Assembly: GCA_037447435.1 (NCBI GenBank)
Contig: JBBIGR010000017.1
Span: 28,985-92,984 of the forward strand
Source: Fibrobacteria bacterium
GTDB lineage: Bacteria; Fibrobacterota; Chitinivibrionia; Chitinivibrionales; FEN-1185
DNA length: 64,000 bases
Direction of reading: 5' to 3'
The stretch's first letter is position 1; the number at the start of each line of letters is the position of its first letter. The notes under the pieces were generated by a model. That model saw nothing but the letters and a program-made list of their open reading frames with translations, ran no database searches and had not been told where the DNA came from. The position numbers and the translations under genes were made by a program. Below are positions 19,561 through 33,273 of the stretch, piece by piece.

Positions 19561-21264
19561 TTATTTGTAATTCAACTGTTCTTTTTTCTTCATAAGCAAT
19601 CGCCAGATTTTATCCACAAGTTCTTTACCTGAAAACGGTTTTACGATAAAATCGCCGGCCCCCGAAGCAAAGCATTTTTGGATTTCGCTGCTTTGCGATC
19701 CTGCCGAGAAAAAAGCAATCGGAATGCTTTTTGTTTCCTCCTGAGAGCGTAGAATGCGGCATACTCTATACCCGTCGATTCCCGACAAATACGAATCGAC
19801 CAGGATTACAGAAGGCATATGCTCGAACGCCATGGCCAATCCCGCTTCTCCGCTTTCAGCGACAAGAACCTCGAAAATATTTTCAAGTACCATTCGGGAA
19901 ATTTCTATTGCTTCCCTATCGCTGTCTATGAATAAAATAGAGGGCTTTTTATCGACATTGTCTGCGGATTGATGCTGTTCCCGTATCTTTTCTTCCTGGA
20001 TTTCAGAAATACGGATGGTTTTCGTCTCATCATCGTCCCATTCGATTTTAGCCTCAATGGGCATTACGACATGAAATTGACTACCCGGAAATTTATTTTT
20101 ATCGGACGGTCCTTCACTTTCGACCCAAATCCTGCCGCCGTGACGCTCTACTATTCCTTTAACTATAGAAAGACCGAGTCCCGTGCCGCCGCCCATGAAC
20201 TTTGAAAAATCGGTACTGTGCCTGGTTGCATTTCCCACTTCGTAAAAGGGATCGAAGATTTTCTTTTGTTCGCTTTTATCTATGCCGATACCCTGGTCTT
20301 TGACAATGATGTGAAATTCCGACTTATTGTATAATTCGATGCGGACCTCAATAAGCGAATCGTCGGGTGAGAATTTCAAGGAATTTGAACAGAGGTTGGT
20401 GAACAACTGCTGCATACGCATCGTATCGCCGCGAAATTTCGGTAAATTATCGGCCAATATACACTCTACTCGAATGTTGCGTTTTGCGGAAAATTGCGAT
20501 AATTCGTCGATACATTCTCTGGCAACTGTACCCAAATCCATGAGTTCCGGCTTAAGGCGAAGTCTTTTTTGTTCTATGCGGGTCACATCGAGGATGTTAT
20601 TGACTACACGATGCAGGCGGTCTGCCGCTCGGTTGATGCTCTCGATCATTCTGTAGATACCGCCGTCCAATTTTTCTTTCATTGTGTCGATAATTATGTC
20701 TGAATACCCTTTAATGGAAGTGAGCGGCGTTTTCAGTTCATGGGAAGCGATGCTGAGAAAATTCGACTTTAACTCGCTCACCCGACGCAGTTCTGCGTTT
20801 GAACGAATGAGCTCGGAATTGATTTTGGCTAGTTCAAGGTTTTTCTTTTCAATTTGATCGGCGGATTTGACCTCTTCAGTGATGTCTTTGAATTCAAGAG
20901 CAAAAACCGTTTCATTTTTAACGGTATCTTCTATTAAAAAGGCATGCAACGAACAAAGTATCTCATTACCGCCTTTACATATGATTACCGTTTTAACGTC
21001 GCAGTTTTTATCACGAAGCAAAGTATCTCGGATTTCAGGCCAGCCTATTCCCTGACCCGACTCGGAAATGATGGATTCGACATGGGTGCCGGACAAGGAA
21101 TCGCGTCCGTACTTAAGGTCTTTTTCCGTAAACCCGTTGGCATATAAAATCGTACCGTCTGTTTTCGTGATTAAAATATCTTCAGGTGTATGTTCAACGA
21201 TGCGTGCCATCAAATACAAATCGTCTTGAATTTCCTTAGAAAATTTATTTTTTCCCAACAACAT
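19561..21264 (-). CDS. Cytoplasmic hybrid histidine kinase (PAS-HisKA-HATPase-REC)
   Basis: PAS (ILYAN), SHELKTPL H box, NLCSNSLKF, DQGIGI, GTGLGL, C-terminal REC with KPF. Confidence 0.93.
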   Translation of the reverse strand: MLLGKNKFSKEIQDDLYLMARIVEHTPEDILITKTDGTILYANGFTEKDLKYGRDSLSGTHVESIISESGQGIGWPEIRDTLLRDKNCDVKTVIICKGGNEILCSLHAFLIEDTVKNETVFALEFKDITEEVKSADQIEKKNLELAKINSELIRSNAELRRVSELKSNFLSIASHELKTPLTSIKGYSDIIIDTMKEKLDGGIYRMIESINRAADRLHRVVNNILDVTRIEQKRLRLKPELMDLGTVARECIDELSQFSAKRNIRVECILADNLPKFRGDTMRMQQLFTNLCSNSLKFSPDDSLIEVRIELYNKSEFHIIVKDQGIGIDKSEQKKIFDPFYEVGNATRHSTDFSKFMGGGTGLGLSIVKGIVERHGGRIWVESEGPSDKNKFPGSQFHVVMPIEAKIEWDDDETKTIRISEIQEEKIREQHQSADNVDKKPSILFIDSDREAIEISRMVLENIFEVLVAESGEAGLAMAFEHMPSVILVDSYLSGIDGYRVCRILRSQEETKSIPIAFFSAGSQSSEIQKCFASGAGDFIVKPFSGKELVDKIWRLLMKKKEQLNYK

Positions 21265-21345
21265 TGTATTTCCGTATTGAAAAAGGTATTCTAACCAAGA
21301 ATTACAAAAAAACTTATTCTAAGACTAAAATCAAGAATTTCCGAC

Positions 21346-21918
21346 TCAGAACTTTACTTCAGGCGCTTTTTGCGCCGCTTTGTCTGCTTCAAAAAACGGT
21401 TTTCTGGTCAAGTTCATTTGCTTTGCAACAATTTGTTCAACAAGCCCGCGAATTGCCGTATTATACATTTGTACAACTTCGTTGTATCGTCTTCTTTCGG
21501 TCGAGATCCTGTTTTCCGTGCCTTCGAGTTGAGCCATAAGATCCCTGAAATTTTCATTCGCTTTAAGATTGGGATATTGTTCGGTGACCACCAGCAATCG
21601 TCCGAGCGCAGATGTCAGATCTTTATTTGCGTTTATTTTGTCGGGTATCGTTTGGGCGGAGCCGACACGAGCGCGAGCCTCGGTGACTTCGGTCAAGACT
21701 TTCTCCTCATGAGTCGCATACCCTTTAACGGTATTGACAAGATTCGGAATAAGGTCGAGCCTTCTTTGCAATTGATTTTCAACTTGGGCCCAAGCGGAAT
21801 TTACTGTTTCGTCGAGCCTGACGAATTTATTATATGTCGAAGAAAACCATGACCAAACCAGTAAACCTATGACAATAACGACAGCCAGACCGATCAATAG
21901 TTTTGTTGTTGTTTTCAT
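21346..21918 (-). CDS. lemA: LemA family protein
   Basis: N-terminal TM, QRRLDLIPNLV, EQYPNLKA, ENRISTERRRYN. Confidence 0.95.
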   Translation of the reverse strand: MKTTTKLLIGLAVVIVIGLLVWSWFSSTYNKFVRLDETVNSAWAQVENQLQRRLDLIPNLVNTVKGYATHEEKVLTEVTEARARVGSAQTIPDKINANKDLTSALGRLLVVTEQYPNLKANENFRDLMAQLEGTENRISTERRRYNEVVQMYNTAIRGLVEQIVAKQMNLTRKPFFEADKAAQKAPEVKF

Positions 21919-22652
21919 TATGCTTCCTTTTTATTTGTTTCAGAATCGACCGTTTTAATAAGTGCATCTATAGTTAAGGCAAATTGACCGATGATCTCGT
22001 TTAGCGATCGTTTGGTGCCGATTTTCGTATGCGGTACGCATAATTCAGTAAAAACGGAAATCCCAAGGTTATATAATTCTTCGACCGCTATGATGATATC
22101 GCATTTAAGCTTTGGAATAGCCCGATCGTTAAGTACCAATAATGCTTTAAATACGGGTAATAATGTTTTAAGCGACGATACCAGCAAGTTTCCCAGTATT
22201 TTTTTATTATCATTGGTCCGTATATATTCACGGCGGAAATGCAGGGCTATGCCCTTTAATTCACGTTCGCATTGCAGCCGGACATGTTCTTTTTGTATAT
22301 CAAGCCTGCTGAAAACATCATCGCCGAATAATACTTTGTAATTGGAACGCATATCAATAAATTCGATCGGATACGTATCAAGAGATGAATTTATATATTC
22401 CCTTGTCATAAAAAACGGCGTAACGACATTCTTCTTTGCCCAGTATGCTGCAATCGATAAACCTTTTGACAATTCTGCAATTTGATCTTTTTGTAAAACG
22501 ATTATCGTATTGATGTCGGAAATGCCGGGCTTGTATTCATGGGATACCGCACTGCCGTACATGATGACACTTGACAAATTGTCGCCGAATGCGTTTTTGT
22601 AATCGGTAACATATGTATCGACTATGTCGTTGGGATTTCGAATTATTCCCAC
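21918..22652 (-). CDS. Pol-beta-superfamily nucleotidyltransferase-like protein
   Basis: VIMYGSAV...SDIN motif, helical C-terminal half, GTG start with GGAG RBS. Confidence 0.65.
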   Translation of the reverse strand: MGIIRNPNDIVDTYVTDYKNAFGDNLSSVIMYGSAVSHEYKPGISDINTIIVLQKDQIAELSKGLSIAAYWAKKNVVTPFFMTREYINSSLDTYPIEFIDMRSNYKVLFGDDVFSRLDIQKEHVRLQCERELKGIALHFRREYIRTNDNKKILGNLLVSSLKTLLPVFKALLVLNDRAIPKLKCDIIIAVEELYNLGISVFTELCVPHTKIGTKRSLNEIIGQFALTIDALIKTVDSETNKKEA

Positions 22653-22661
22653 AAATTCTCC

Positions 22662-23453
22662 TTAAAACCTTCCAGAGGCACCGCCGCCGCCGCTCATTCC
22701 GCCGCCAAAACCGGAAAACCCGCCGCCGCCGAATCCGCCGCCGAATCCCTTACCGCTTGACCGGCCGGATGAAATAGAGGAAAGAAGCATAAAAAACAAA
22801 AGCGAGCGCCCACCCCTGGTTGAAAGTAAAAATAATAAGATAACACCGGCAAAAAGCAAACCAAATGCATTGATTTTTTTAGGCCTGCCTTGTACTTGCA
22901 CACGATAATCCGAATAGGTATTGCTGGATATTTCGGCCAATGAAGTATTATGCGCTTTTGCGGCCAAGCTTGCCAACGCAAGCATGATCGCTTCCGATCC
23001 TTTGTCCCAATTTTGTTGCGTAAGTAAAGGCCCATTTTCCCGAATGATGCGACTGGCAAGGATGTCGGGCACGTATCCTTCGGAACCGTATCCCGTTTCT
23101 ATCCGTATTTGTCTGTCTTGCGTTGCAATCAAAACCAAAAGTCCTTCGTCGACACCTTTTTTCCCTATTCCCCATTTTTCAAAAAGTCGAGTTGCAAAAT
23201 CATTGATATCGTTTCCATCAAGCGTTGGTATTGTCACCAATACTAAAGAAACCCCTGTTTTATTTGAAAGCATCGTTGAAACCGATCCAAGCGTTTGTTT
23301 CGTACCCGAAGATAATACGTTGGAAAAATCGTTAATCGCACCCTGCGGAGACGCATTGAATATGTCGAAAGCAAATGTTTGAAAAGCAAGAAACAGGAAA
23401 ATGGTAGCGGATTGCAAAAGACGATTAAATTTGTTTTGGTGCATGACAGCCAT
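22662..23453 (-). CDS. TPM-domain (YgcG-like) membrane protein with Gly-rich tail
   Basis: NDFSNVL, WGIGKKGVDEGLL, IETGYGSEG..PD, one TM, GGG.SGGGGASGRF tail. Confidence 0.9.
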   Translation of the reverse strand: MAVMHQNKFNRLLQSATIFLFLAFQTFAFDIFNASPQGAINDFSNVLSSGTKQTLGSVSTMLSNKTGVSLVLVTIPTLDGNDINDFATRLFEKWGIGKKGVDEGLLVLIATQDRQIRIETGYGSEGYVPDILASRIIRENGPLLTQQNWDKGSEAIMLALASLAAKAHNTSLAEISSNTYSDYRVQVQGRPKKINAFGLLFAGVILLFLLSTRGGRSLLFFMLLSSISSGRSSGKGFGGGFGGGGFSGFGGGMSGGGGASGRF

Positions 23454-25863: not shown

Positions 25864-25907
25864 AAAAAAATGAAAAAGGCAAGCCACCCTTTTCCGATGA
25901 CTCGCCC
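25864..25907 (-). terminator. Intrinsic terminator of the LamG-cohesin-dockerin gene
   Basis: Minus strand GGCGAGTCATC-loop-GGTGGCTTGCC (11 bp including G-U pairs) followed by T tracts. Confidence 0.7.
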
Positions 25908-25925: not shown

Positions 25926-27986
25926 CTATCGCCCTGTTATTGGAATTTTAGCCGTATGGGTATCATTTCCACTGGTGATTTTGAATAAATACAACCCGGT
26001 TTTAAAAAGTTTTTTATCAAGAATGAGAATCGGGCTGTTCGAAAAGTCATTTTTAAAAATTAATCTCCCCAATATATCATACAGCTGAACGGTTACGGAT
26101 TTTTTGGGGAAATTTCGAAGAACTATTTGACTTTTGAAAACTTCAATCTGGGGAGATGTTGACGGCATCTGCAATGACCGATTGCTTTTTACCGGAATCG
26201 AGACAAATGTTGCCGGGATTTTTCCTTCGTTGACAAGAGCGTTTTTAATCGACATTCCGGATTCAATGATTCCCGGTTTTTGTTGCACCGTGACGACAAA
26301 TAAATCGAGGTCGGTGCTGTCGATTTGATCATTAGTTGTTAAAGCAGCACTATAGCACTGTTGCGAATTATCGTATTGCGCACGCAAATTGGCATTACGG
26401 ATCTTCGGAGAAATGTCCTTAATCGTCGCAATGACCGACGGATTGCATTGTAAAACGAATTGTCCGGCAATGAAGCCTTGTATATTTTTTGCATGTAATG
26501 TGTATTGGTAAATATCCGTACCAATATTAAATGGACTGGAAAGCGTTAATTGAGCCACGGAATCGGTAATTGCTTTTGTCGAGAGTTTTTTCTGTATTGT
26601 TTTATTTTGTATCGGAAAATTTGTAAACATTCCGACACTATATTGAAATATTAATGCGGCGTCATAGCTTGAAATCGTTCCATCCCCTGTAACATCCGCG
26701 ACTGTTTTGGTAAAATTCGAACAACATTGCGTATCGGGCAAAACAACCTTACCGACAATAAATTCAAGAATCCGCGCAGCGTCGAGGGATGTCACCTCCC
26801 CGTTTCCCGTAACGTCGCCGAACAAAACCGTTGGTTTCAACACATTGATTTTTCCCGATACCGACGTTGGCGTGATAAATTTATTTTCGTCAATGCTGAT
26901 ATCCTGTAAATCGATTGTCGAAGATTTCCCTTGAATCGCATTTTTATTTATTACGAAGGTTCCGCGAATTAATTCACCTTCACCATAGGCGATAGATGTC
27001 GCCAAACCTCCCATTGCAACCGGTACAGGGTCAATTTTATCGGCATTGGCAATTACGCTCCAGTTTTTTGCAATACCGCTGTCTTTTGAAACGCTCACCA
27101 ACTTGACTATCGATGTGTCGAAATGAAGGGCAAATTGACATGAACTGATTTTATAGTCTTCGAAATTTGTTAAATATATCGGCATTTCAATCGTGTCGCC
27201 GGGATTACCATACGCTTGTTTCATACCAAGATTGATTTTAAATTGCGGAGTCGAACTTACGGTAACGCTATTATAAGATTTTGCAATTTCGGTTGTTGAT
27301 AATGCATAATTATAAATTTTCATTTCGTCGATTTTGCCGTTAAACCAATTTCTCAGACTATTATCGGTTCCAACCTGAACCCCTATATAGGCATTTTGAT
27401 GCGGTGGAATATAGCCGCCCGCATATGCTTGTTTGCCAGCTAACCGATTATTAAGATATACGCACATAGTATTACCGTCATACGTAAAAACAACATGGTA
27501 CCACGTTCGCGGTTTAATTATGGAATCGGAATAACATCCGATCCAGGATCCGGGGTTAATAGCCTGCGATAAAGTTGCTTGAATCACGCCTTGATCCGTA
27601 ATTTCAAGACTATATCCTTCGGCCAAGCCCGATGCCCATGTTTGGTAACTGATAATGGTTTTATAATTTAAAAAAGAACCAGGGTTAACCAAATCGATGT
27701 ACGAATAAATCCATGCCTCAATGGAAAATTGCGGTGCACTGAAATTATTTAAAGAATTTAGCACAACCGGTTTATAGGAAGTTCCTATACAATTTAATGC
27801 CTTCCCTTTTACGCCATCTGTGAGCCCCAAATTGGTAGAAACAATCGTATATCCATGTCCCGTGCCGTCATTAAAATTTGTTCCCGTACTGGAATCAAAG
27901 GACCAACTTGCTAATAAATCCTGCCCGCAAAGCGAATTTTGAACCAGCAAAAAGACAGACAATATAGCAAGTTTTATTATAGGCAT
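25926..27986 (-). CDS. Secreted LamG / cohesin / dockerin protein with T9SS-type C-terminal domain
   Basis: Signal peptide. LamG (ASWSFD, WYHVVFTYDG, FNGKIDEMKIYNYALS). Cohesin (PGDTIEMPIYL...FALHFDTSIVKLVSV). Dockerin duplicate GDVTGNGEVTSLDA / ADVTGDGTISSYDA. CTD (LYDILGR...GLYLFKI). Confidence 0.88.
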   Translation of the reverse strand: MPIIKLAILSVFLLVQNSLCGQDLLASWSFDSSTGTNFNDGTGHGYTIVSTNLGLTDGVKGKALNCIGTSYKPVVLNSLNNFSAPQFSIEAWIYSYIDLVNPGSFLNYKTIISYQTWASGLAEGYSLEITDQGVIQATLSQAINPGSWIGCYSDSIIKPRTWYHVVFTYDGNTMCVYLNNRLAGKQAYAGGYIPPHQNAYIGVQVGTDNSLRNWFNGKIDEMKIYNYALSTTEIAKSYNSVTVSSTPQFKINLGMKQAYGNPGDTIEMPIYLTNFEDYKISSCQFALHFDTSIVKLVSVSKDSGIAKNWSVIANADKIDPVPVAMGGLATSIAYGEGELIRGTFVINKNAIQGKSSTIDLQDISIDENKFITPTSVSGKINVLKPTVLFGDVTGNGEVTSLDAARILEFIVGKVVLPDTQCCSNFTKTVADVTGDGTISSYDAALIFQYSVGMFTNFPIQNKTIQKKLSTKAITDSVAQLTLSSPFNIGTDIYQYTLHAKNIQGFIAGQFVLQCNPSVIATIKDISPKIRNANLRAQYDNSQQCYSAALTTNDQIDSTDLDLFVVTVQQKPGIIESGMSIKNALVNEGKIPATFVSIPVKSNRSLQMPSTSPQIEVFKSQIVLRNFPKKSVTVQLYDILGRLIFKNDFSNSPILILDKKLFKTGLYLFKITSGNDTHTAKIPITGR

Positions 27987-28017
27987 GTAACCTCCATTTT
28001 TTTCTTATGAAAAATAG

Positions 28018-28033
28018 CGCAACATTCATACCA
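28018..28033 (-). promoter_or_regulatory. sigma54 (RpoN) -24/-12 promoter
   Basis: Minus strand TGGTATGAATGTTGCG, i.e. GG-N10-GC, about 30 nt upstream of ATG 27986 (GGAGG RBS). Confidence 0.8.
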
Positions 28034-28102
28034 GGTAAAATTTGAATTTGATTCCTTTATAATTATCAAATTCCGCCAAATGTTTTTTTAGGATAATATC
28101 AA

Positions 28103-28133
28103 TGTCGGGATTGAGCGTGTCAAAATTGAGACG
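28103..28133. promoter_or_regulatory. Candidate enhancer (UAS) for the adjacent sigma54 activator
   Basis: Tandem TGTC-N3-ATTGAG (28103-28115 and 28118-28130). The second copy lies within the imperfect palindrome CGTGTCAAAATTGAGACG (28116-28133). Confidence 0.5.
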
Positions 28134-28134
28134 A

Positions 28135-29889
28135 TCAATTAATTTCCAGCGATGCCAAATATCGAAACATCGTGCTCCGGCTCATACCCAAAAGCTGCGC
28201 AGTTTTTTCTTTATTCCCTTGGCAATGGAGAAGTGCTTTTGATATAAAATCTCTTTGAAACGCATTAGTGGCTTTATTGAGATCGAATTCAACATTTATG
28301 TCCTGGTTGCGATAATGGTCGGATATATCGGCTAATACATTCGTCGATGTGACGACCGCTTTATGGACGGCATTTGATAATTCCCGAACATTGCCAGGCC
28401 ATTCATAGTGCCTAATGAACCGCAATGTATCTTCCGAAAAATCGATTACCCCTTTTGCCGGATATTCGCGCTTATATTTTTCCAGAAAAAAATATGCCAG
28501 CATCACGGAGTCATCCTGACGTTCTCGAAGAGAAGGAATATGGATCGTGAATTGATTTAATCGATAAAAAAGATCCTGTCGGAACGCTCCTTTTTTAACC
28601 ATATCGGTTAGTTTTTTATTTGTTGCGCAAATGACGCGAACATCCACATCCTTTTCATGGGAAGATCCTACCGGTCTGATTACGCCGGATTCCAACGTTC
28701 GTAACAATTTGGCTTGCGTTTCCAAAGGCATTTCACCAATTTCGTCGAGGAAAATTGTTCCTCCATCTGCGGTCTCAAAAAGCCCCAGATGGTCATTTGT
28801 TGCACCTGTAAATGCTCCCTTTTTATGTCCGAACAATTCCGACTCCAAAAGATTCCCTTGCAGAGAACTGCAATTGACGACAACGTAATTGCCGGCAGAG
28901 CGACGGCAATTGTCATGAATTCCCTTCGCAATGACGTCTTTACCGGTTCCGGTTTCACCTTCAAGCAAAACTGAAATGTCGGATTCGGAAGCAAAATTCA
29001 TCAACTTGAAAATTTCCTTCATTGCAGGAGATTGGCCGATAATCCCATTGGTTTTTGAGAAACTTAAAAGTTTTTGTATACTGGCATCTTGGCTTTCTAT
29101 TAGATCGACATGACCGACAAGCAGCCCCGCTATTAATGAAAAAAGCTGCAAATGTTGCAGGTCTTTTTCGGAATATGAAAAAGAAGTGTTTGTTGATCCG
29201 AGATAGGCAATTCCGATTTCTTTCTTTGCAGCTCGTATTGGGCAGCAAATAACCGATGATAGTTTTAGGTCTGATACGCTTTTTGAAAGTGAAAACGCCG
29301 GATCGGACAATGCGTTAGGAATGCAAATGCCTTTTCCTGTTTTTATCACCGATTGAACTATCGTGTCACTGAATTGTTCATTGGGATCGTCGCTAGAGGA
29401 TGAAACAAAAACCTTGGGATTTCCATCGGAATCCAATGTAAAAATAAACGCATGCGTGCCGCCAATAGTGGCAATAAAAATTTCCATAGTCTTTTTCAGC
29501 AGCGTTTTTACATCACGCTCACAATACAATGAATCGGAAAAAAAAGAAAGATTCTGAAGCATTTTGCCGGATTCGTCGGGCTGCTCGACGGAAAACGAAC
29601 CGGATTTTACTTGTGCTAATTTAAAATTGCTCGAACCGATCGACACGCAATCTCCGGGAAGAATTTGGGCCTTTTTAAATTTTAAACCGTTCAACTTAAC
29701 CATAGATGAATTCAGGAGATTTTCTACGGTACAATCCGCTTTATTAACGTTTAGGCGAACCGCGATATCCGGCACATTCTGTTCATCGACGATGATATCG
29801 TTACCAGGTTCCGCTCCAAGCAAGAACGCCTGCGACCGTATGATAATTTCTTCTTCCCTGTTTTCGCAATACCGTATAAGTTTATACAT
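28135..29889 (-). CDS. sigma54-dependent enhancer-binding protein, FHA-like + GAF + AAA+ + Fis-HTH
   Basis: GETGTGKD Walker A, ESELFGHKKGAFTGA, FLDEIGE Walker B, FRQDLFYRL, WPGNVREL, C-terminal HTH. GAF (SDTIV...SVICCPI). Degenerate FHA fold at the N-terminus. Confidence 0.93.
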   Translation of the reverse strand: MYKLIRYCENREEEIIIRSQAFLLGAEPGNDIIVDEQNVPDIAVRLNVNKADCTVENLLNSSMVKLNGLKFKKAQILPGDCVSIGSSNFKLAQVKSGSFSVEQPDESGKMLQNLSFFSDSLYCERDVKTLLKKTMEIFIATIGGTHAFIFTLDSDGNPKVFVSSSSDDPNEQFSDTIVQSVIKTGKGICIPNALSDPAFSLSKSVSDLKLSSVICCPIRAAKKEIGIAYLGSTNTSFSYSEKDLQHLQLFSLIAGLLVGHVDLIESQDASIQKLLSFSKTNGIIGQSPAMKEIFKLMNFASESDISVLLEGETGTGKDVIAKGIHDNCRRSAGNYVVVNCSSLQGNLLESELFGHKKGAFTGATNDHLGLFETADGGTIFLDEIGEMPLETQAKLLRTLESGVIRPVGSSHEKDVDVRVICATNKKLTDMVKKGAFRQDLFYRLNQFTIHIPSLRERQDDSVMLAYFFLEKYKREYPAKGVIDFSEDTLRFIRHYEWPGNVRELSNAVHKAVVTSTNVLADISDHYRNQDINVEFDLNKATNAFQRDFISKALLHCQGNKEKTAQLLGMSRSTMFRYLASLEIN

Positions 29890-29891
29890 GA

Positions 29892-30881
29892 TTAAAATAC
29901 CAGCGTCCCTTTATGAATTGTAAAATTATTCCATGCGCACGATCTTGTTTCCTGCCTGTTATCAACAATCATGCGTAAGTGGAAAAAGAGATTGTTATTA
30001 ACCGGAAAATTCAACTTGTTAAGAGTGTCTTGATCGGTATTTCCCATTGAAGAATATATAAAATGCATTGTCGAATCGGTTTTTGAAAGCCATAAAACGC
30101 CTGAAAAATAGTCACGAACCGTGCTCGAAACTTGCCCATTTATACTTTTGCATTTTATTTCAGTGCTCGCATTTATTGCGGACAAATATATGCCCGCGAC
30201 GTCTCCTGCCCATTTGCCGGTATCGTCGGTCGTTGAAACGAAAAACCCGCATTCATATCCATTTTTAAAAAATTCGAGAAGGGAGAATTCTATGCTGCAG
30301 GTAAAATCCCCTTTCACGGTAAAATTGCTTCGAATACCTGTTTTACAGGCAGCGGCCGTCGAAACATCCGCCTGAAAAATAAATTGCAAGGTCGCATCTG
30401 CGGTGCTGATAAAACTTCTTTTTATTACGGATCCTGTGTCAAGAATGCTATAAAATTTCCAGCCGTTTATTGGGAACAAATCGAACGTTTCGATATATTT
30501 TTTCTTAAAATCATATTCGATCGGGCATTTTCCGCCTTGCTGATCCACGACGTCGAACCGGCCCGAGAAATCGCCAAATTGACAACCGGGATAAAACAAC
30601 AGAACCGTTTTGGTCCCCAACGTTTTTTCAACAAGCCTACTCGTTCCTATCCATGCGTTTGAAACCGAAACGATGCTGTCGTTAAGGTCTGATATGGAAA
30701 TTGAATCTATTAAGCTATCGGGGTAATAAATCGATTTGTTTAATACGGAATTGGCTGCGACAATTGCAGGAGTATTGTTGTTGAGAGGTATGTTTGTATT
30801 ATGATAACAGCTTAAAAACCCGGCACCCAGAAGAATAGGCGCGCATATAAAATAAACTGTAAATTTAAAATTCATATACAA
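29892..30881 (-). CDS. Hypothetical lipoprotein, beta-rich
   Basis: Signal peptide ending in lipobox-like FLS-C. Overlaps the upstream gene's stop codon. Confidence 0.65.
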   Translation of the reverse strand: MYMNFKFTVYFICAPILLGAGFLSCYHNTNIPLNNNTPAIVAANSVLNKSIYYPDSLIDSISISDLNDSIVSVSNAWIGTSRLVEKTLGTKTVLLFYPGCQFGDFSGRFDVVDQQGGKCPIEYDFKKKYIETFDLFPINGWKFYSILDTGSVIKRSFISTADATLQFIFQADVSTAAACKTGIRSNFTVKGDFTCSIEFSLLEFFKNGYECGFFVSTTDDTGKWAGDVAGIYLSAINASTEIKCKSINGQVSSTVRDYFSGVLWLSKTDSTMHFIYSSMGNTDQDTLNKLNFPVNNNLFFHLRMIVDNRQETRSCAWNNFTIHKGTLVF

Positions 30882-31653
30882 AAGTAATTTCCGGAAAACC
30901 GGTTATTTGAAGGCTGATTTTCTTTTGGTTTAAAAAGGTTTTTTCATATTTATAAAACAACAAAGATCCTCCGATTATCGATAATGCCGATGCTGCGATG
31001 TAAATAGTCGTATAGGTATCTTCGTCATTTACTTGTGTTTTCAAACTGTTGTATTCTTGCAAATTTCCATTGGAAGCGGCGTTGGTAAATTCCGTAAAAC
31101 TTTCCTTTGACTTTTTGTATTCAAAAAAGCCTTCTATTCCGGTAACAATCCCCGTTAGAACGCAGACACCCGAAGCTGCTAAAAAATACGTTTGTGAAAT
31201 TGTCTGTTTTTCTTTTTTCAAATTTAATTTCGAAGTCATTATGGCAATGTCTTTTTGTTTTAATAATGAATCCTGCCTCATTTTTTCAATCAGATTCTTT
31301 TTATACTCCTCTTTTGCAGAGTAAAAAACATCCTGAATTGTTTTGGAAATATATTGAGAATCTATCGTGACCGATGAATCCAAAACCAATGCATTGGAAA
31401 AAATTATTCTTGCTTCCGAAATTCTGCCTTTTGCCGAATACGCAACGCCAAGGATCTTGAAATAAAAGGAATTTTCTTTATCCGCAACCGTCAAAGCATG
31501 GTTTTTTACCAAAGGCTCTAAAATTTGAATAATGCTGTCATATTCTCCCCATTTAAAATGATTATCGATTTTAGAGAAAGAAAATTGCTCTGCAGCATAG
31601 GTGTTCATTCCGAAAAGGAGTATTATAAATAGTAATTTGTCAAAACGTTTCAT
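30865..31653 (-). CDS. Secreted TPR-like protein with two hydrophobic helices and an aromatic C-terminus
   Basis: ATG 31653 gives signal peptide MKRFDKLLFIILLFGMNTYA. TPR-like ILGVAYSAKGRISEARIIFSNAL. Ends ...EITFVYEF. Confidence 0.65.
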   Translation of the reverse strand: MKRFDKLLFIILLFGMNTYAAEQFSFSKIDNHFKWGEYDSIIQILEPLVKNHALTVADKENSFYFKILGVAYSAKGRISEARIIFSNALVLDSSVTIDSQYISKTIQDVFYSAKEEYKKNLIEKMRQDSLLKQKDIAIMTSKLNLKKEKQTISQTYFLAASGVCVLTGIVTGIEGFFEYKKSKESFTEFTNAASNGNLQEYNSLKTQVNDEDTYTTIYIAASALSIIGGSLLFYKYEKTFLNQKKISLQITGFPEITFVYEF

Positions 31654-31686
31654 ACATTTTAATCGATAACCCGGGGAATTTAACAA

Positions 31687-33273
31687 TCAAGGGTTGGGAG
31701 ATAATTGTATCCGTTTCTCGATTGTATCATTTGTATTGCAATCTATAGAAAATTCGACTTTTTGAAAACCATCCTTTTGAATCGAAACGGTATGGTTGCC
31801 TACGGAAACAATCGCAAAAGAAATTGTCGGATATTCTCCGACAAAAATTCCGTCGACAGAAATTTTTGTCCATGGCGGATTTGTTTTAATATATACAATC
31901 GCATTACCGTTTTTTTTCATTTTTGTAGAATCCACACTTGTAAGTATTGCGTTGTCGTTGTTTTTATCAACAAAGACCGGCGCAGCGGCATTTGATCGAA
32001 CGATCTCGCTTTTTACATGGAATTTGTCGCCAGGATTGATTCTTTCGTTTTGCACCGGTATCGTTTTTTGCGGGACATTCACGGATTCAATTCTTGTCGA
32101 ATCACCGTGCTTTAGGATACCGTTGTTGACCAATGCAGTATTATGATTGTCAAAGCGCTTCGTATGCGACCTGAAAAACAACAAGCTCGCTATCGCACAA
32201 AAAAGGAAGCACGTTCCTAAAAAAAACAACCGTTTGTTCTTATTGCCCTTGCCGGCTTTATACAATATTTTTTTTTCAAACTCGCTGACAGTCCCAAAAC
32301 ACGATGCGATTGACAATTCTTTTATTGCAATAGCCTTATTTTTTCTTTTAAAACTTTCCTTGGCTTTTCCGTGGAAATGATTAAACAATTCTTCATCTTC
32401 CAGAATTTTATATTGAGTACTGTTTTCAATCAATCCGGTTATCCGGTTCCTGGAAACGGTCATTTTTTCGGAAATCCGGAAACTTTCCATGATAGAACAA
32501 CACTCTGCTGCAGAAGGACGATCTTGAGGATCTTTTTTTAAACACCTATCAATAATATTCGACAAATCCGGTAATATCTTTTGGTTCTTCATAAAAACGG
32601 GGGCCGGTTGACACGATTCTATGGCATGGAACACATGGTTGATGGTTTCTCCGGCAAATGCAGGTTCCCCGGTCGCGCACATATAGGCAACAAGACCGGC
32701 GGAAAAAACATCGGTTTTTTCCGTTACTCTTTTTCCGGCAACCTGTTCGGGCGACATGAAATTCGGCGAACCCATAAATGAACCCGTCATGGTCATCGAG
32801 TCGTTACCCATAAGATGCGCTATCCCAAAATCCATTATCTTTAAATAACCATTATTATCAATCATCAAATTGGAAGGTTTAATGTCTCTATGACATATTC
32901 CCTTGCCATGTGCTTCTTTCAAGCCCGAAAACAATTGATGGCAAATTGAGAGAATAACAAGATTAGGGATTGGAGCAAATTTTCTGATAAATTCAAGCAA
33001 AGTGTTGCCGCTTAAATATTCCATAACCAGAAAACATTTTTCATCGGTAATTCCAAAATCAAATATTTTTACTATGTTTTCATGGGATAATGCCGCAATT
33101 GCCGACGCTTCATTTTCAAATCTTTTTCTTGCTTTTTCACTTTCAGCAAGATGCGGATGCAACACTTTCATCGCAATTTCGCGACCGAGGATTTTGTCAT
33201 GCGCCAGATACACGACAGCCATCCCGCCGCTGCCGATTTTCCGTTTGGTAACATAACGCAGTTTGTCGTCCAT
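31687..33273 (-). CDS. Membrane Hanks-type Ser/Thr protein kinase with C-terminal PEGA domain
   Basis: GSGGMAVV, AMK, HRDIKPSN, DFG, MSPEQ, DVFSAG intact. TM LFFLGTCFLFCAIASLLFF. PEGA (IKTNPPW..ISVDG...GNHTVSIQKDGF). Confidence 0.93.
   Translation of the reverse strand: MDDKLRYVTKRKIGSGGMAVVYLAHDKILGREIAMKVLHPHLAESEKARKRFENEASAIAALSHENIVKIFDFGITDEKCFLVMEYLSGNTLLEFIRKFAPIPNLVILSICHQLFSGLKEAHGKGICHRDIKPSNLMIDNNGYLKIMDFGIAHLMGNDSMTMTGSFMGSPNFMSPEQVAGKRVTEKTDVFSAGLVAYMCATGEPAFAGETINHVFHAIESCQPAPVFMKNQKILPDLSNIIDRCLKKDPQDRPSAAECCSIMESFRISEKMTVSRNRITGLIENSTQYKILEDEELFNHFHGKAKESFKRKNKAIAIKELSIASCFGTVSEFEKKILYKAGKGNKNKRLFFLGTCFLFCAIASLLFFRSHTKRFDNHNTALVNNGILKHGDSTRIESVNVPQKTIPVQNERINPGDKFHVKSEIVRSNAAAPVFVDKNNDNAILTSVDSTKMKKNGNAIVYIKTNPPWTKISVDGIFVGEYPTISFAIVSVGNHTVSIQKDGFQKVEFSIDCNTNDTIEKRIQLSPNP

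Follow-up and report, generated by a model that had tools for sequence, protein, structure and literature searches.

We analyzed a window of 64,000 nucleotides of DNA (~40% G+C) from a member of the Fibrobacterota, order Chitinivibrionales, and found in it a cassette of five minus-strand genes. On balance, we think that this cassette probably represents a conserved Fibrobacterota module in which a sigma-54 activator, together with a Hanks-type Ser/Thr kinase bearing a PEGA domain, a TPR protein, and a lectin-fold lipoprotein, drives an adjacent gene for a cargo protein secreted by the type IX secretion system (T9SS). The kinase, TPR protein, lipoprotein, and activator are likely to act as an envelope sensor that switches the cargo on. 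The two sides of this module differ in strength. Comparison among genomes supports the output side well, making a regulon of activator, enhancer, sigma-54, and cargo highly probable, while the input side, from sensor to kinase and from kinase to activator, is inferred and weaker.

The five open reading frames (ORFs) fill positions 25926-33273 of the window and lie where a first-pass annotation of this DNA had placed them. The kinase gene (31687-33273, 528 aa) is followed by the genes for the TPR membrane protein, here called tm273 (30865-31686, 273 aa), the lipoprotein, here called lipo329 (29892-30881, 329 aa), the activator (28135-29889, 584 aa), and the cargo (25926-27986, 686 aa). Neighboring regulator ORFs are separated by gaps of 0 to 2 bp or overlap by 17 bp. 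The TPR gene had been given as 31653-30865; its location stands, but the ORF reaches 31686, and a start at the in-frame ATG at 31653 instead would shorten the product to 262 aa. Between activator and cargo lie 148 bp, which contain a candidate enhancer, or upstream activating sequence (28096-28132), then the -24/-12 promoter TGGTATGAATGTTGC (28033-28019), a GGAGG ribosome-binding site (27995-27991), and the ATG. On the 3' side of the cargo gene, also on the minus strand, is a terminator-like hairpin with 12 pairs and a trailing T run (25877-25907). The earlier positions of the promoter box and the hairpin were confirmed as well.

The activator consists of a degenerate FHA-like domain (residues ~11-93), a GAF domain (124-255), an AAA+ domain (283-450; Sigma54_activat, PF00158, 227.6 bits in Pfam), and a helix-turn-helix (HTH) domain (544-574; HTH_8, 32.1 bits). 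Its GAFTGA loop (HKKGAFTGA) is conserved, and the recognition helix of the HTH, SRS(T/S)F(F/Y)R, is conserved across 13 orthologs, which fits a shared, predicted binding site. The genome carries one copy of rpoN (Sigma54_DBD, 201.9 bits). As far as sequence can tell, the activator thus has the features of an enhancer-binding protein, namely, an AAA+ domain with GAFTGA, a Fis-type HTH with sites upstream of the target, and rpoN together with a -24/-12 target. It would bind the palindromes described below through its conserved HTH and drive sigma-54 transcription of the cargo.

In TGGTATGAATGTTGC, the GC of the -12 element falls at 28020-28019, and the predicted transcription start is near 28008. 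The match is weak when taken alone, as the window contains two occurrences of TGGYAYN5TTGC versus 0.49 expected, and 8 of 100 shuffles reach two; its support comes from conservation of the box in other genomes. A box of the type TGGCATG-N4-TTGC lies upstream of the cargo gene in the window, in both cassette copies of locus L022 (L022a and L022b), and in loci L021, L025, L029, L031, and L043, and TTGA replaces TTGC at -12 in L023, L024, and L034. The proposal of a -24/-12 box at the cargo is therefore borne out both in the window and upstream of cargo homologs. Upstream of the box, the family shares an enhancer consensus of GTCCC-N6-GGGAC palindromes in tandem, 20 to 21 bp apart. Measured from the -24 TGG, L021, L024, L025, L029, and L034 have such pairs at -85/-89 and -64/-68, a weaker pair is found in L033 (-86/-65), and the pair of L023 is farther out (-119/-100); L031 and L043 have a single palindrome each. 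Across 384,159 bases of the collected loci, there were 22 combinations of box and palindrome, whereas 20 block shuffles averaged 3.05 and never exceeded 6. According to the gene maps, 13 of the 22 precede genes with LamG, cohesin, or dockerin domains, and 4 precede genes beside these that Pfam marks as VIT-like. Genomes G038, G035, and G029 have the cohesin-dockerin gene on a contig other than that of the regulators, yet box and palindromes are still present at this gene; in G038, for instance, GTCCCGGATTCGGGAC and TGGCATGCGTATTGCA stand at -172 and -87, respectively, relative to the start codon of the unlinked cargo.

These results also bear on the simplest alternative, that unrelated genes are adjacent by chance next to a fortuitous -24/-12 match. 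What speaks for it is that the promoter pattern of the window is only weakly above chance expectation. We nevertheless regard it as extremely improbable, given the conserved geometry of box and palindromes, their retention at unlinked cargo genes, and a synteny, described below, that is kept across families.

The candidate enhancer of the window itself consists of two degenerate palindromes 21 bp apart, a pair that begins 99 bp upstream of the -24 TGG. Site 1, GTCTCAATTTTGACAC (28132-28117), scores 7/10 against the family consensus, and site 2, ATCCCGACATTGATAT (28111-28096), was read by eye without a score. The window copy closely resembles that of G029, with the spacer GCTCA common to both. 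A perfect 9-bp inverted repeat, GAATTTGAT-N12-ATCAAATTC (28073-28044), was also considered as the enhancer and rejected because other loci conserve a different motif. It separates the candidate enhancer from the -24 box and could be a site for a bending protein or a second regulator.

The regulon may not be confined to cohesin-dockerin genes. VIT-like proteins of 544 to 855 aa are encoded beside cohesin-dockerin genes or within the module (L063, 1405-3927; L064, 324-2876; L065, 2002-4569; L051, 9109-10743). Since VIT-like genes of this kind have their own sigma-54 box and palindrome, they are probably further members of the regulon in some families. The VIT-like genes on contigs C14 and C12 of the window's own genome showed no -24/-12 box. 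That genome contains 100 sigma-54-type sites, 4 of which have an 8/10 palindrome upstream, and 34 tandem-pair matches, corresponding to 17 sites each read on both strands. No further target was identified in this genome, although the genes at these sites were not checked. Separately, genes for secreted LamG or VIT-like proteins of the genus share an upstream motif like TTCTGCCAGAAAACACTTT-N-TTTGCA (in the window's own genome at C14 ~9924 and C12 ~60019, in L071 at ~2830-2995, and in L072 at ~2560-2690). As it does not show the GG spacing expected of a -24/-12 box, it may be another type of promoter or the site of a surface-protein regulator.

The cargo has a signal peptide, a LamG domain (Laminin_G_3 in Pfam), a cohesin domain (Cohesin), a type I dockerin (Dockerin_1), a region of ~170 aa without assignment, and a C-terminal T9SS sorting domain. 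The sorting domain scores 31.9 bits with TIGR04183 (cut-off, 23) and just under the cut-off with the Pfam model (26.3 versus 27). The genome encodes a T9SS, with a SprA_N match of 82.2 bits and ~120 matches to the C-terminal domain, so that sorting domain and secretion system together mark the protein as a predicted T9SS cargo. Its homologs align over nearly their full length at 30 to 38% identity, and many have one or two additional LamG domains. An adjacent cargo homolog is present in the window, L021, L022 (two copies), L023, L024, L025, L029, L031, L033, L034, L043, L051, and L055. The first-pass annotation had asked whether the downstream gene is a variable secreted protein with a constant -24/-12 box. 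The box does precede the cargo homologs, but the protein belongs to one conserved family.

The dockerin contains the duplicated calcium-binding segment (DVTGNGEVTSLDA and DVTGDGTISSYDA). The whole genome yields just two matches to cohesin and two to dockerin, and the cargo accounts for one of each; a cellulosome, with its many dockerin enzymes and multi-cohesin scaffoldin, is ruled out for this reason. With a cohesin and a dockerin of its own, the cargo may self-associate on the cell surface, where it would display its lectin domain. The only other cohesin match of the genome is on contig C28 (18013-19076), in a 277-aa ORF that also matches the T9SS C-terminal domain, and a neighboring 3355-aa ORF has a weak dockerin match. 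It is possible that these C28 proteins are partners for the cohesin or dockerin of the cargo.

Conservation of the regulators as a set is the second main line of evidence. In 20 loci (the window itself, L021, L022, L024-L028, L030-L034, L036, L039, L043, L049, L050, L051, and L055), the genes for the kinase, TPR protein, and activator are clustered, usually with that for lipo329 as well. Four of these (L049, L050, L051, and L055) come from other Fibrobacterota families. There are at least three gene orders: kinase-TPR protein-lipoprotein-activator, kinase-activator-TPR protein-lipoprotein, and kinase-TPR protein-activator-lipoprotein. The flanks differ as well, with PFK in four loci and otherwise unrelated genes. 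That the set stays together through such rearrangement is good evidence for a functional unit. A loss of synteny in relatives had been set beforehand as the observation that would count against the proposal; the kinase, TPR protein, and activator instead remain syntenic despite their permuted order. L002, L029, L052, and the second copy in L022 are clipped by short contigs. No kinase gene stands within 9.2 kb of the activator and TPR-like genes of L053, and L054 has a TPR-domain match only.

In all, the comparison drew on 296 genomes. Of 81 genomes of the order, 21, counting the window's own, had strong full-length matches to the TPR profile (E < 1e-50), and weaker matches came from further Fibrobacterota families (G253, an unpublished genome in this list, was not used). 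Among 60 relatives from this order, 16 carried a lipo329 homolog. A scan for the FEWGEY-type pattern of the TPR protein, which detects the exact pattern only, covered one genome per species (185,579 species) and returned 14 loci, all from Fibrobacterota or a subgroup of it and mostly from Chitinivibrionales and Chitinispirillaceae. Within the window's own genome, the module is single copy, alongside ~20 other Hanks kinase matches and ~20 other activator matches. In L022 (G024:C76), two copies stand side by side ~10 kb apart, each with its own sigma-54 box; the cargo is a protein of 1122 aa in one and a LamG-only protein of 368 aa in the other. Just downstream of the cassette in the window (19561-23453) are genes for a hybrid histidine kinase (PAS-HisKA-HATPase-receiver), LemA, and a TPM-domain protein.

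On the input side, the kinase has a cytoplasmic kinase domain (residues 7-260; Pkinase, 194.7 bits), a conserved juxtamembrane region, a single transmembrane helix predicted by hydropathy (349-367), a variable linker, and a periplasmic PEGA domain (459-526; 29 bits). K36, H128-R129-D130, D148-F149-G150, T161, and T163 are invariant in 10 kinase orthologs. Because these include the catalytic Lys, the HRD and DFG motifs, and two activation-loop threonines (T161 and T163), the kinase looks active.

As a single sequence, tm273 matched no Pfam or NCBIfam family. It was aligned with 13 orthologs (alignment A2), centered on the invariant FEWGEY motif, and the profile from these 14 sequences matches consensus TPR proteins in the PDB at profile positions 39-101 (E, 1.5e-13 to 6.5e-5), which shows the TPR label to be correct. 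The protein has an N-terminal hydrophobic segment, about two TPR repeats containing the FEWGEY motif, a long helix, and two transmembrane helices predicted by hydropathy (166-186 and 226-244) that flank a conserved loop of ~40 aa. An AlphaFold2 (AF2) model (mean pLDDT, 81.4) is all helical, with helix pairs and a long helical hairpin. We read tm273 as an inner-membrane protein, with a predicted periplasmic TPR head and a cytoplasmic loop. The first-pass annotation had put it in the outer membrane or periplasm. The TPR repeats hold, whereas the two predicted transmembrane helices move the protein to the inner membrane, and with no outer-membrane transducer present, the picture of one component per compartment is not supported.

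The lipoprotein begins with a hydrophobic stretch (residues 5-25) and an FLSC lipobox whose Cys is aligned in 16 of 16 homologs (alignment A1), and this signal peptide and Cys predict that it is lipidated. A conserved C-x-H-D-x3-P-L-x-N-x2-P segment follows, then an Ig-like beta-sandwich with DxND and a C-terminal concanavalin A-like (lectin/glucanase) jelly roll. Invariant columns of alignment A1 are mainly N-terminal, e.g., D65, N67, and D68. No Pfam or NCBIfam family matched lipo329, a profile search of the PDB gave nothing below an E value of 0.55, a word-index protein search found only seven proteins including the window's own (the named ones being "hypothetical protein"), and the ESM Atlas held no match at or above 0.9. 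The fold comes from an AF2 model (pLDDT, 85.6; pTM, 0.80) showing an Ig-like sandwich and a jelly roll, the best Foldseek matches of the latter being legume lectins, GH16 glucanases, and ERGIC-53 (E, 3e-7 to 1e-5). On this model, lipo329 is a concanavalin-like, lectin-fold lipoprotein. Complex prediction among the C-terminal half of the kinase, lipo329, and tm273 gave a median score of 0.41 with tm273 as partner, and one control scored 0.51.

Taken together, these proteins suggest a sensor made up of the periplasmic PEGA domain of the kinase, the TPR protein, and the lipoprotein, in which the concanavalin-like domain of the lipoprotein would bind a glycan or other surface cue. The conserved linkage speaks for joint action of kinase and activator. 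A more specific picture would be a phylum-specific form of glycan sensing, in which the lectin lipoprotein and TPR protein gate the PEGA kinase, the signal passes to an activator with a degenerate FHA domain, and Ser/Thr chemistry replaces His-Asp chemistry in the sigma-54 control of a self-associating T9SS lectin. We regard this full picture as doubtful.

It is also important to point out several observations that weigh against the module as we read it. In the window, the promoter box (TGGTAT...TTGCG) agrees with the family consensus at 9 of 12 positions, and the enhancer copy is degenerate, with site 1 at 7/10 and at -99 rather than approximately -86. Five of the 22 combinations of box and palindrome stand before neither a cargo-type nor a VIT-like gene, two of them being one site fetched twice. 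G043 has the kinase, activator, and TPR protein genes on one contig and those for the lipoprotein and cargo on another, and G018 has the four regulators with no cargo match at an E value of 1e-10. In the five congeners of the window genome, neither lipo329 (0/5) nor the TPR profile found a match. Three of these genomes (G002, G003, and G005; loci L072, L070, and L071) have a LamG-only secreted gene encoding 514 to 600 aa in the slot of the module, between methyltransferase genes and PFK, and these LamG-only genes lack a -24/-12 box. Family scans of the cassette and neighboring proteins found no phosphatase gene in the cassette. Finally, PF00498 does not match the window's activator, the canonical FHA Arg is kept in only 2 of 13 activator orthologs, and the Ser and His of the SxxH motif are present in none of the 13 (the window's activator has P-D-I-A). 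The slot between the methyltransferase genes and PFK is thus a variable surface-protein slot, and its occupation by a LamG-only gene in congeners without the module indicates that the cassette and its cohesin-dockerin target are gained or lost as a block.

The FHA findings matter most for how the kinase might reach the activator. Canonical FHA domains contact phosphothreonine through an Arg (GR) and through the Ser and His of SxxH. The N-terminal domain of the window's activator, searched alone, matches Yop-YscD_cpl at 36.3 bits (cut-off, 33.2), a family that we take to belong to the Pfam FHA clan. Yop-YscD_cpl is above its cut-off in 7 of 13 orthologs and PF00498 in 6 of 13. As the phosphothreonine-binding residues are absent, a simple step in which the kinase makes phosphothreonine and the FHA domain reads it is doubtful, and the signal would use another route. 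The kinase may phosphorylate the activator elsewhere, or the two may communicate by phospho-independent docking or release. We therefore hold a phosphorylation-based link through the FHA-like domain only tentatively. Of the cascade on Ser/Thr phosphorylation and sigma-54 that the first-pass annotation envisaged, the sigma-54 part stands, with its box at the cargo gene, but the phosphorylation part is in doubt because all 13 FHA-like domains lack the Ser and His.

Alternatively, the circuit of activator, enhancer, sigma-54, and cargo may be real and the activator controlled by a ligand of its GAF domain, with the kinase, TPR protein, and lipoprotein co-transcribed and serving other substrates. 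The GAF domain is the best-conserved N-terminal part of the activator, with the motifs RFSDTIVQ and PNAL.DP; this, the missing phosphothreonine-binding residues, and the many other Hanks kinase matches of the genome, which suggest that kinases here are not generally paired with activators, would all be in keeping with such control. We judge it unlikely, as it leaves aside the linkage of kinase and activator in 20 loci through three or more gene orders and changing flanks and the retention of the FHA-clan domain in all 13 orthologs (E ≤ 0.045), which argues that the domain is used. In the module as we read it, the GAF domain may be a second, small-molecule input to the activator.

Another possibility is that the lipoprotein and TPR protein are partners of the cargo, for surface anchoring or assembly, and that the kinase reports cargo load as a form of feedback or quality control. 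The arrangement in G043, where the lipoprotein gene is with the cargo and apart from the kinase, activator, and TPR protein, is what such a role would predict, and the C-terminal domain of the lipoprotein and the LamG domain of the cargo both belong to the concanavalin-like superfamily. The scarcity of cohesins and dockerins likewise leaves the cargo few possible partners in the genome. The opposite arrangement is found in G029, G035, and G038, where the lipoprotein stays with the regulators and the cargo is elsewhere, and G018 has the four regulators without a cargo match. We consider this role quite unlikely.

To our knowledge, sigma-54 activators have nearly always been studied with receiver, PAS, or GAF inputs, and the kinase-coupled FHA activators we know of are mainly from myxobacteria, mostly without a defined kinase, signal, or target. 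Here, a kinase fixed in the cassette comes with two candidate partners for sensing, an enhancer of defined sequence, and a single clear target, so that each link can be tested directly. The degenerate FHA domain raises the mechanistic question of how a kinase signals to an FHA fold without a phosphothreonine pocket. In addition, the module comes from a poorly studied phylum of polysaccharide degraders and points to the control of one of the many T9SS surface proteins of Fibrobacterota.

Several known systems share parts of this design. The FecARI-type cascades, to which the cassette had been likened, and the SusC-linked ECF (extracytoplasmic function)/anti-sigma systems of Bacteroidota are similar only in logic, leading from an envelope cue to the gene for a surface or secreted protein. 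Among the 14 window and 39 neighboring proteins scanned, there was no TonB-dependent transducer or receptor, anti-sigma factor, or ECF sigma factor, and the analogy fails for want of homologous parts. The TagQRST-PpkA-Fha1-PppA pathway is a threonine phosphorylation pathway of the Pseudomonas aeruginosa H1 type VI secretion system (T6SS), and its output is the post-translational activation of a secretion machine. The resemblance is one of logic only: in that pathway, a membrane Hanks kinase with an FHA-type partner receives its input from a lipoprotein and other accessory proteins of the envelope, as is proposed for the module here. The proposed output of the module is sigma-54 transcription, and the accessory proteins match no family. 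Pfam scans of the cassette and neighboring proteins found no vWA domain on the kinase, ABC-type partner, PP2C, or T6SS family, although no direct homology search with TagQ or TagR was made; the absence of vWA, PP2C, and T6SS families argues against membership in that pathway.

The kinase shares a Hanks domain, one transmembrane helix, and an extracytoplasmic sensor domain with the PknB/Stk1 PASTA kinases, and its best NCBIfam match is the model for these (NF033483; E, 1.2e-86). It is not a PASTA kinase, as the score of 291.9 is below the cut-off of 450, the alignment stops at residue 365, and the outer domain is PEGA in place of PASTA repeats. Likewise, the activator has the same GAF, AAA+, and HTH_8 architecture as the GAF-containing activators NifA, NorR, and FhlA, and the NCBIfam NorR and NifA models align with it at E values of 1e-99 and 1.4e-98. 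It remains below both equivalog cut-offs (334.6 versus 476 and 331 versus 528.85, respectively), and it differs in its additional FHA-like domain, its target, and its partners.

A literature search at the level of abstracts returned no description of the module, and the passages obtained from a comparative paper on sigma-54 (PMC3162934) contained neither FHA or Fibrobacter nor such a module. The pairing of a Hanks kinase with an FHA-type sigma-54 activator is of a known kind, and it is the module built around it for which we found no description. The closest relatives in kind are the FHA-domain sigma-54 activators of Myxococcus xanthus, which reportedly work with Hanks-type kinases. They share with the activator described here an NtrC-family AAA+ architecture, an FHA-type input in place of a receiver domain, and a genome rich in Ser/Thr kinases. 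In the Fibrobacterota module, by contrast, neither the Ser nor the His that binds phosphothreonine is present in the FHA-like domain, a GAF domain comes next in the activator, and the kinase gene is fixed in a cassette together with genes for a TPR membrane protein and a lectin-fold lipoprotein.

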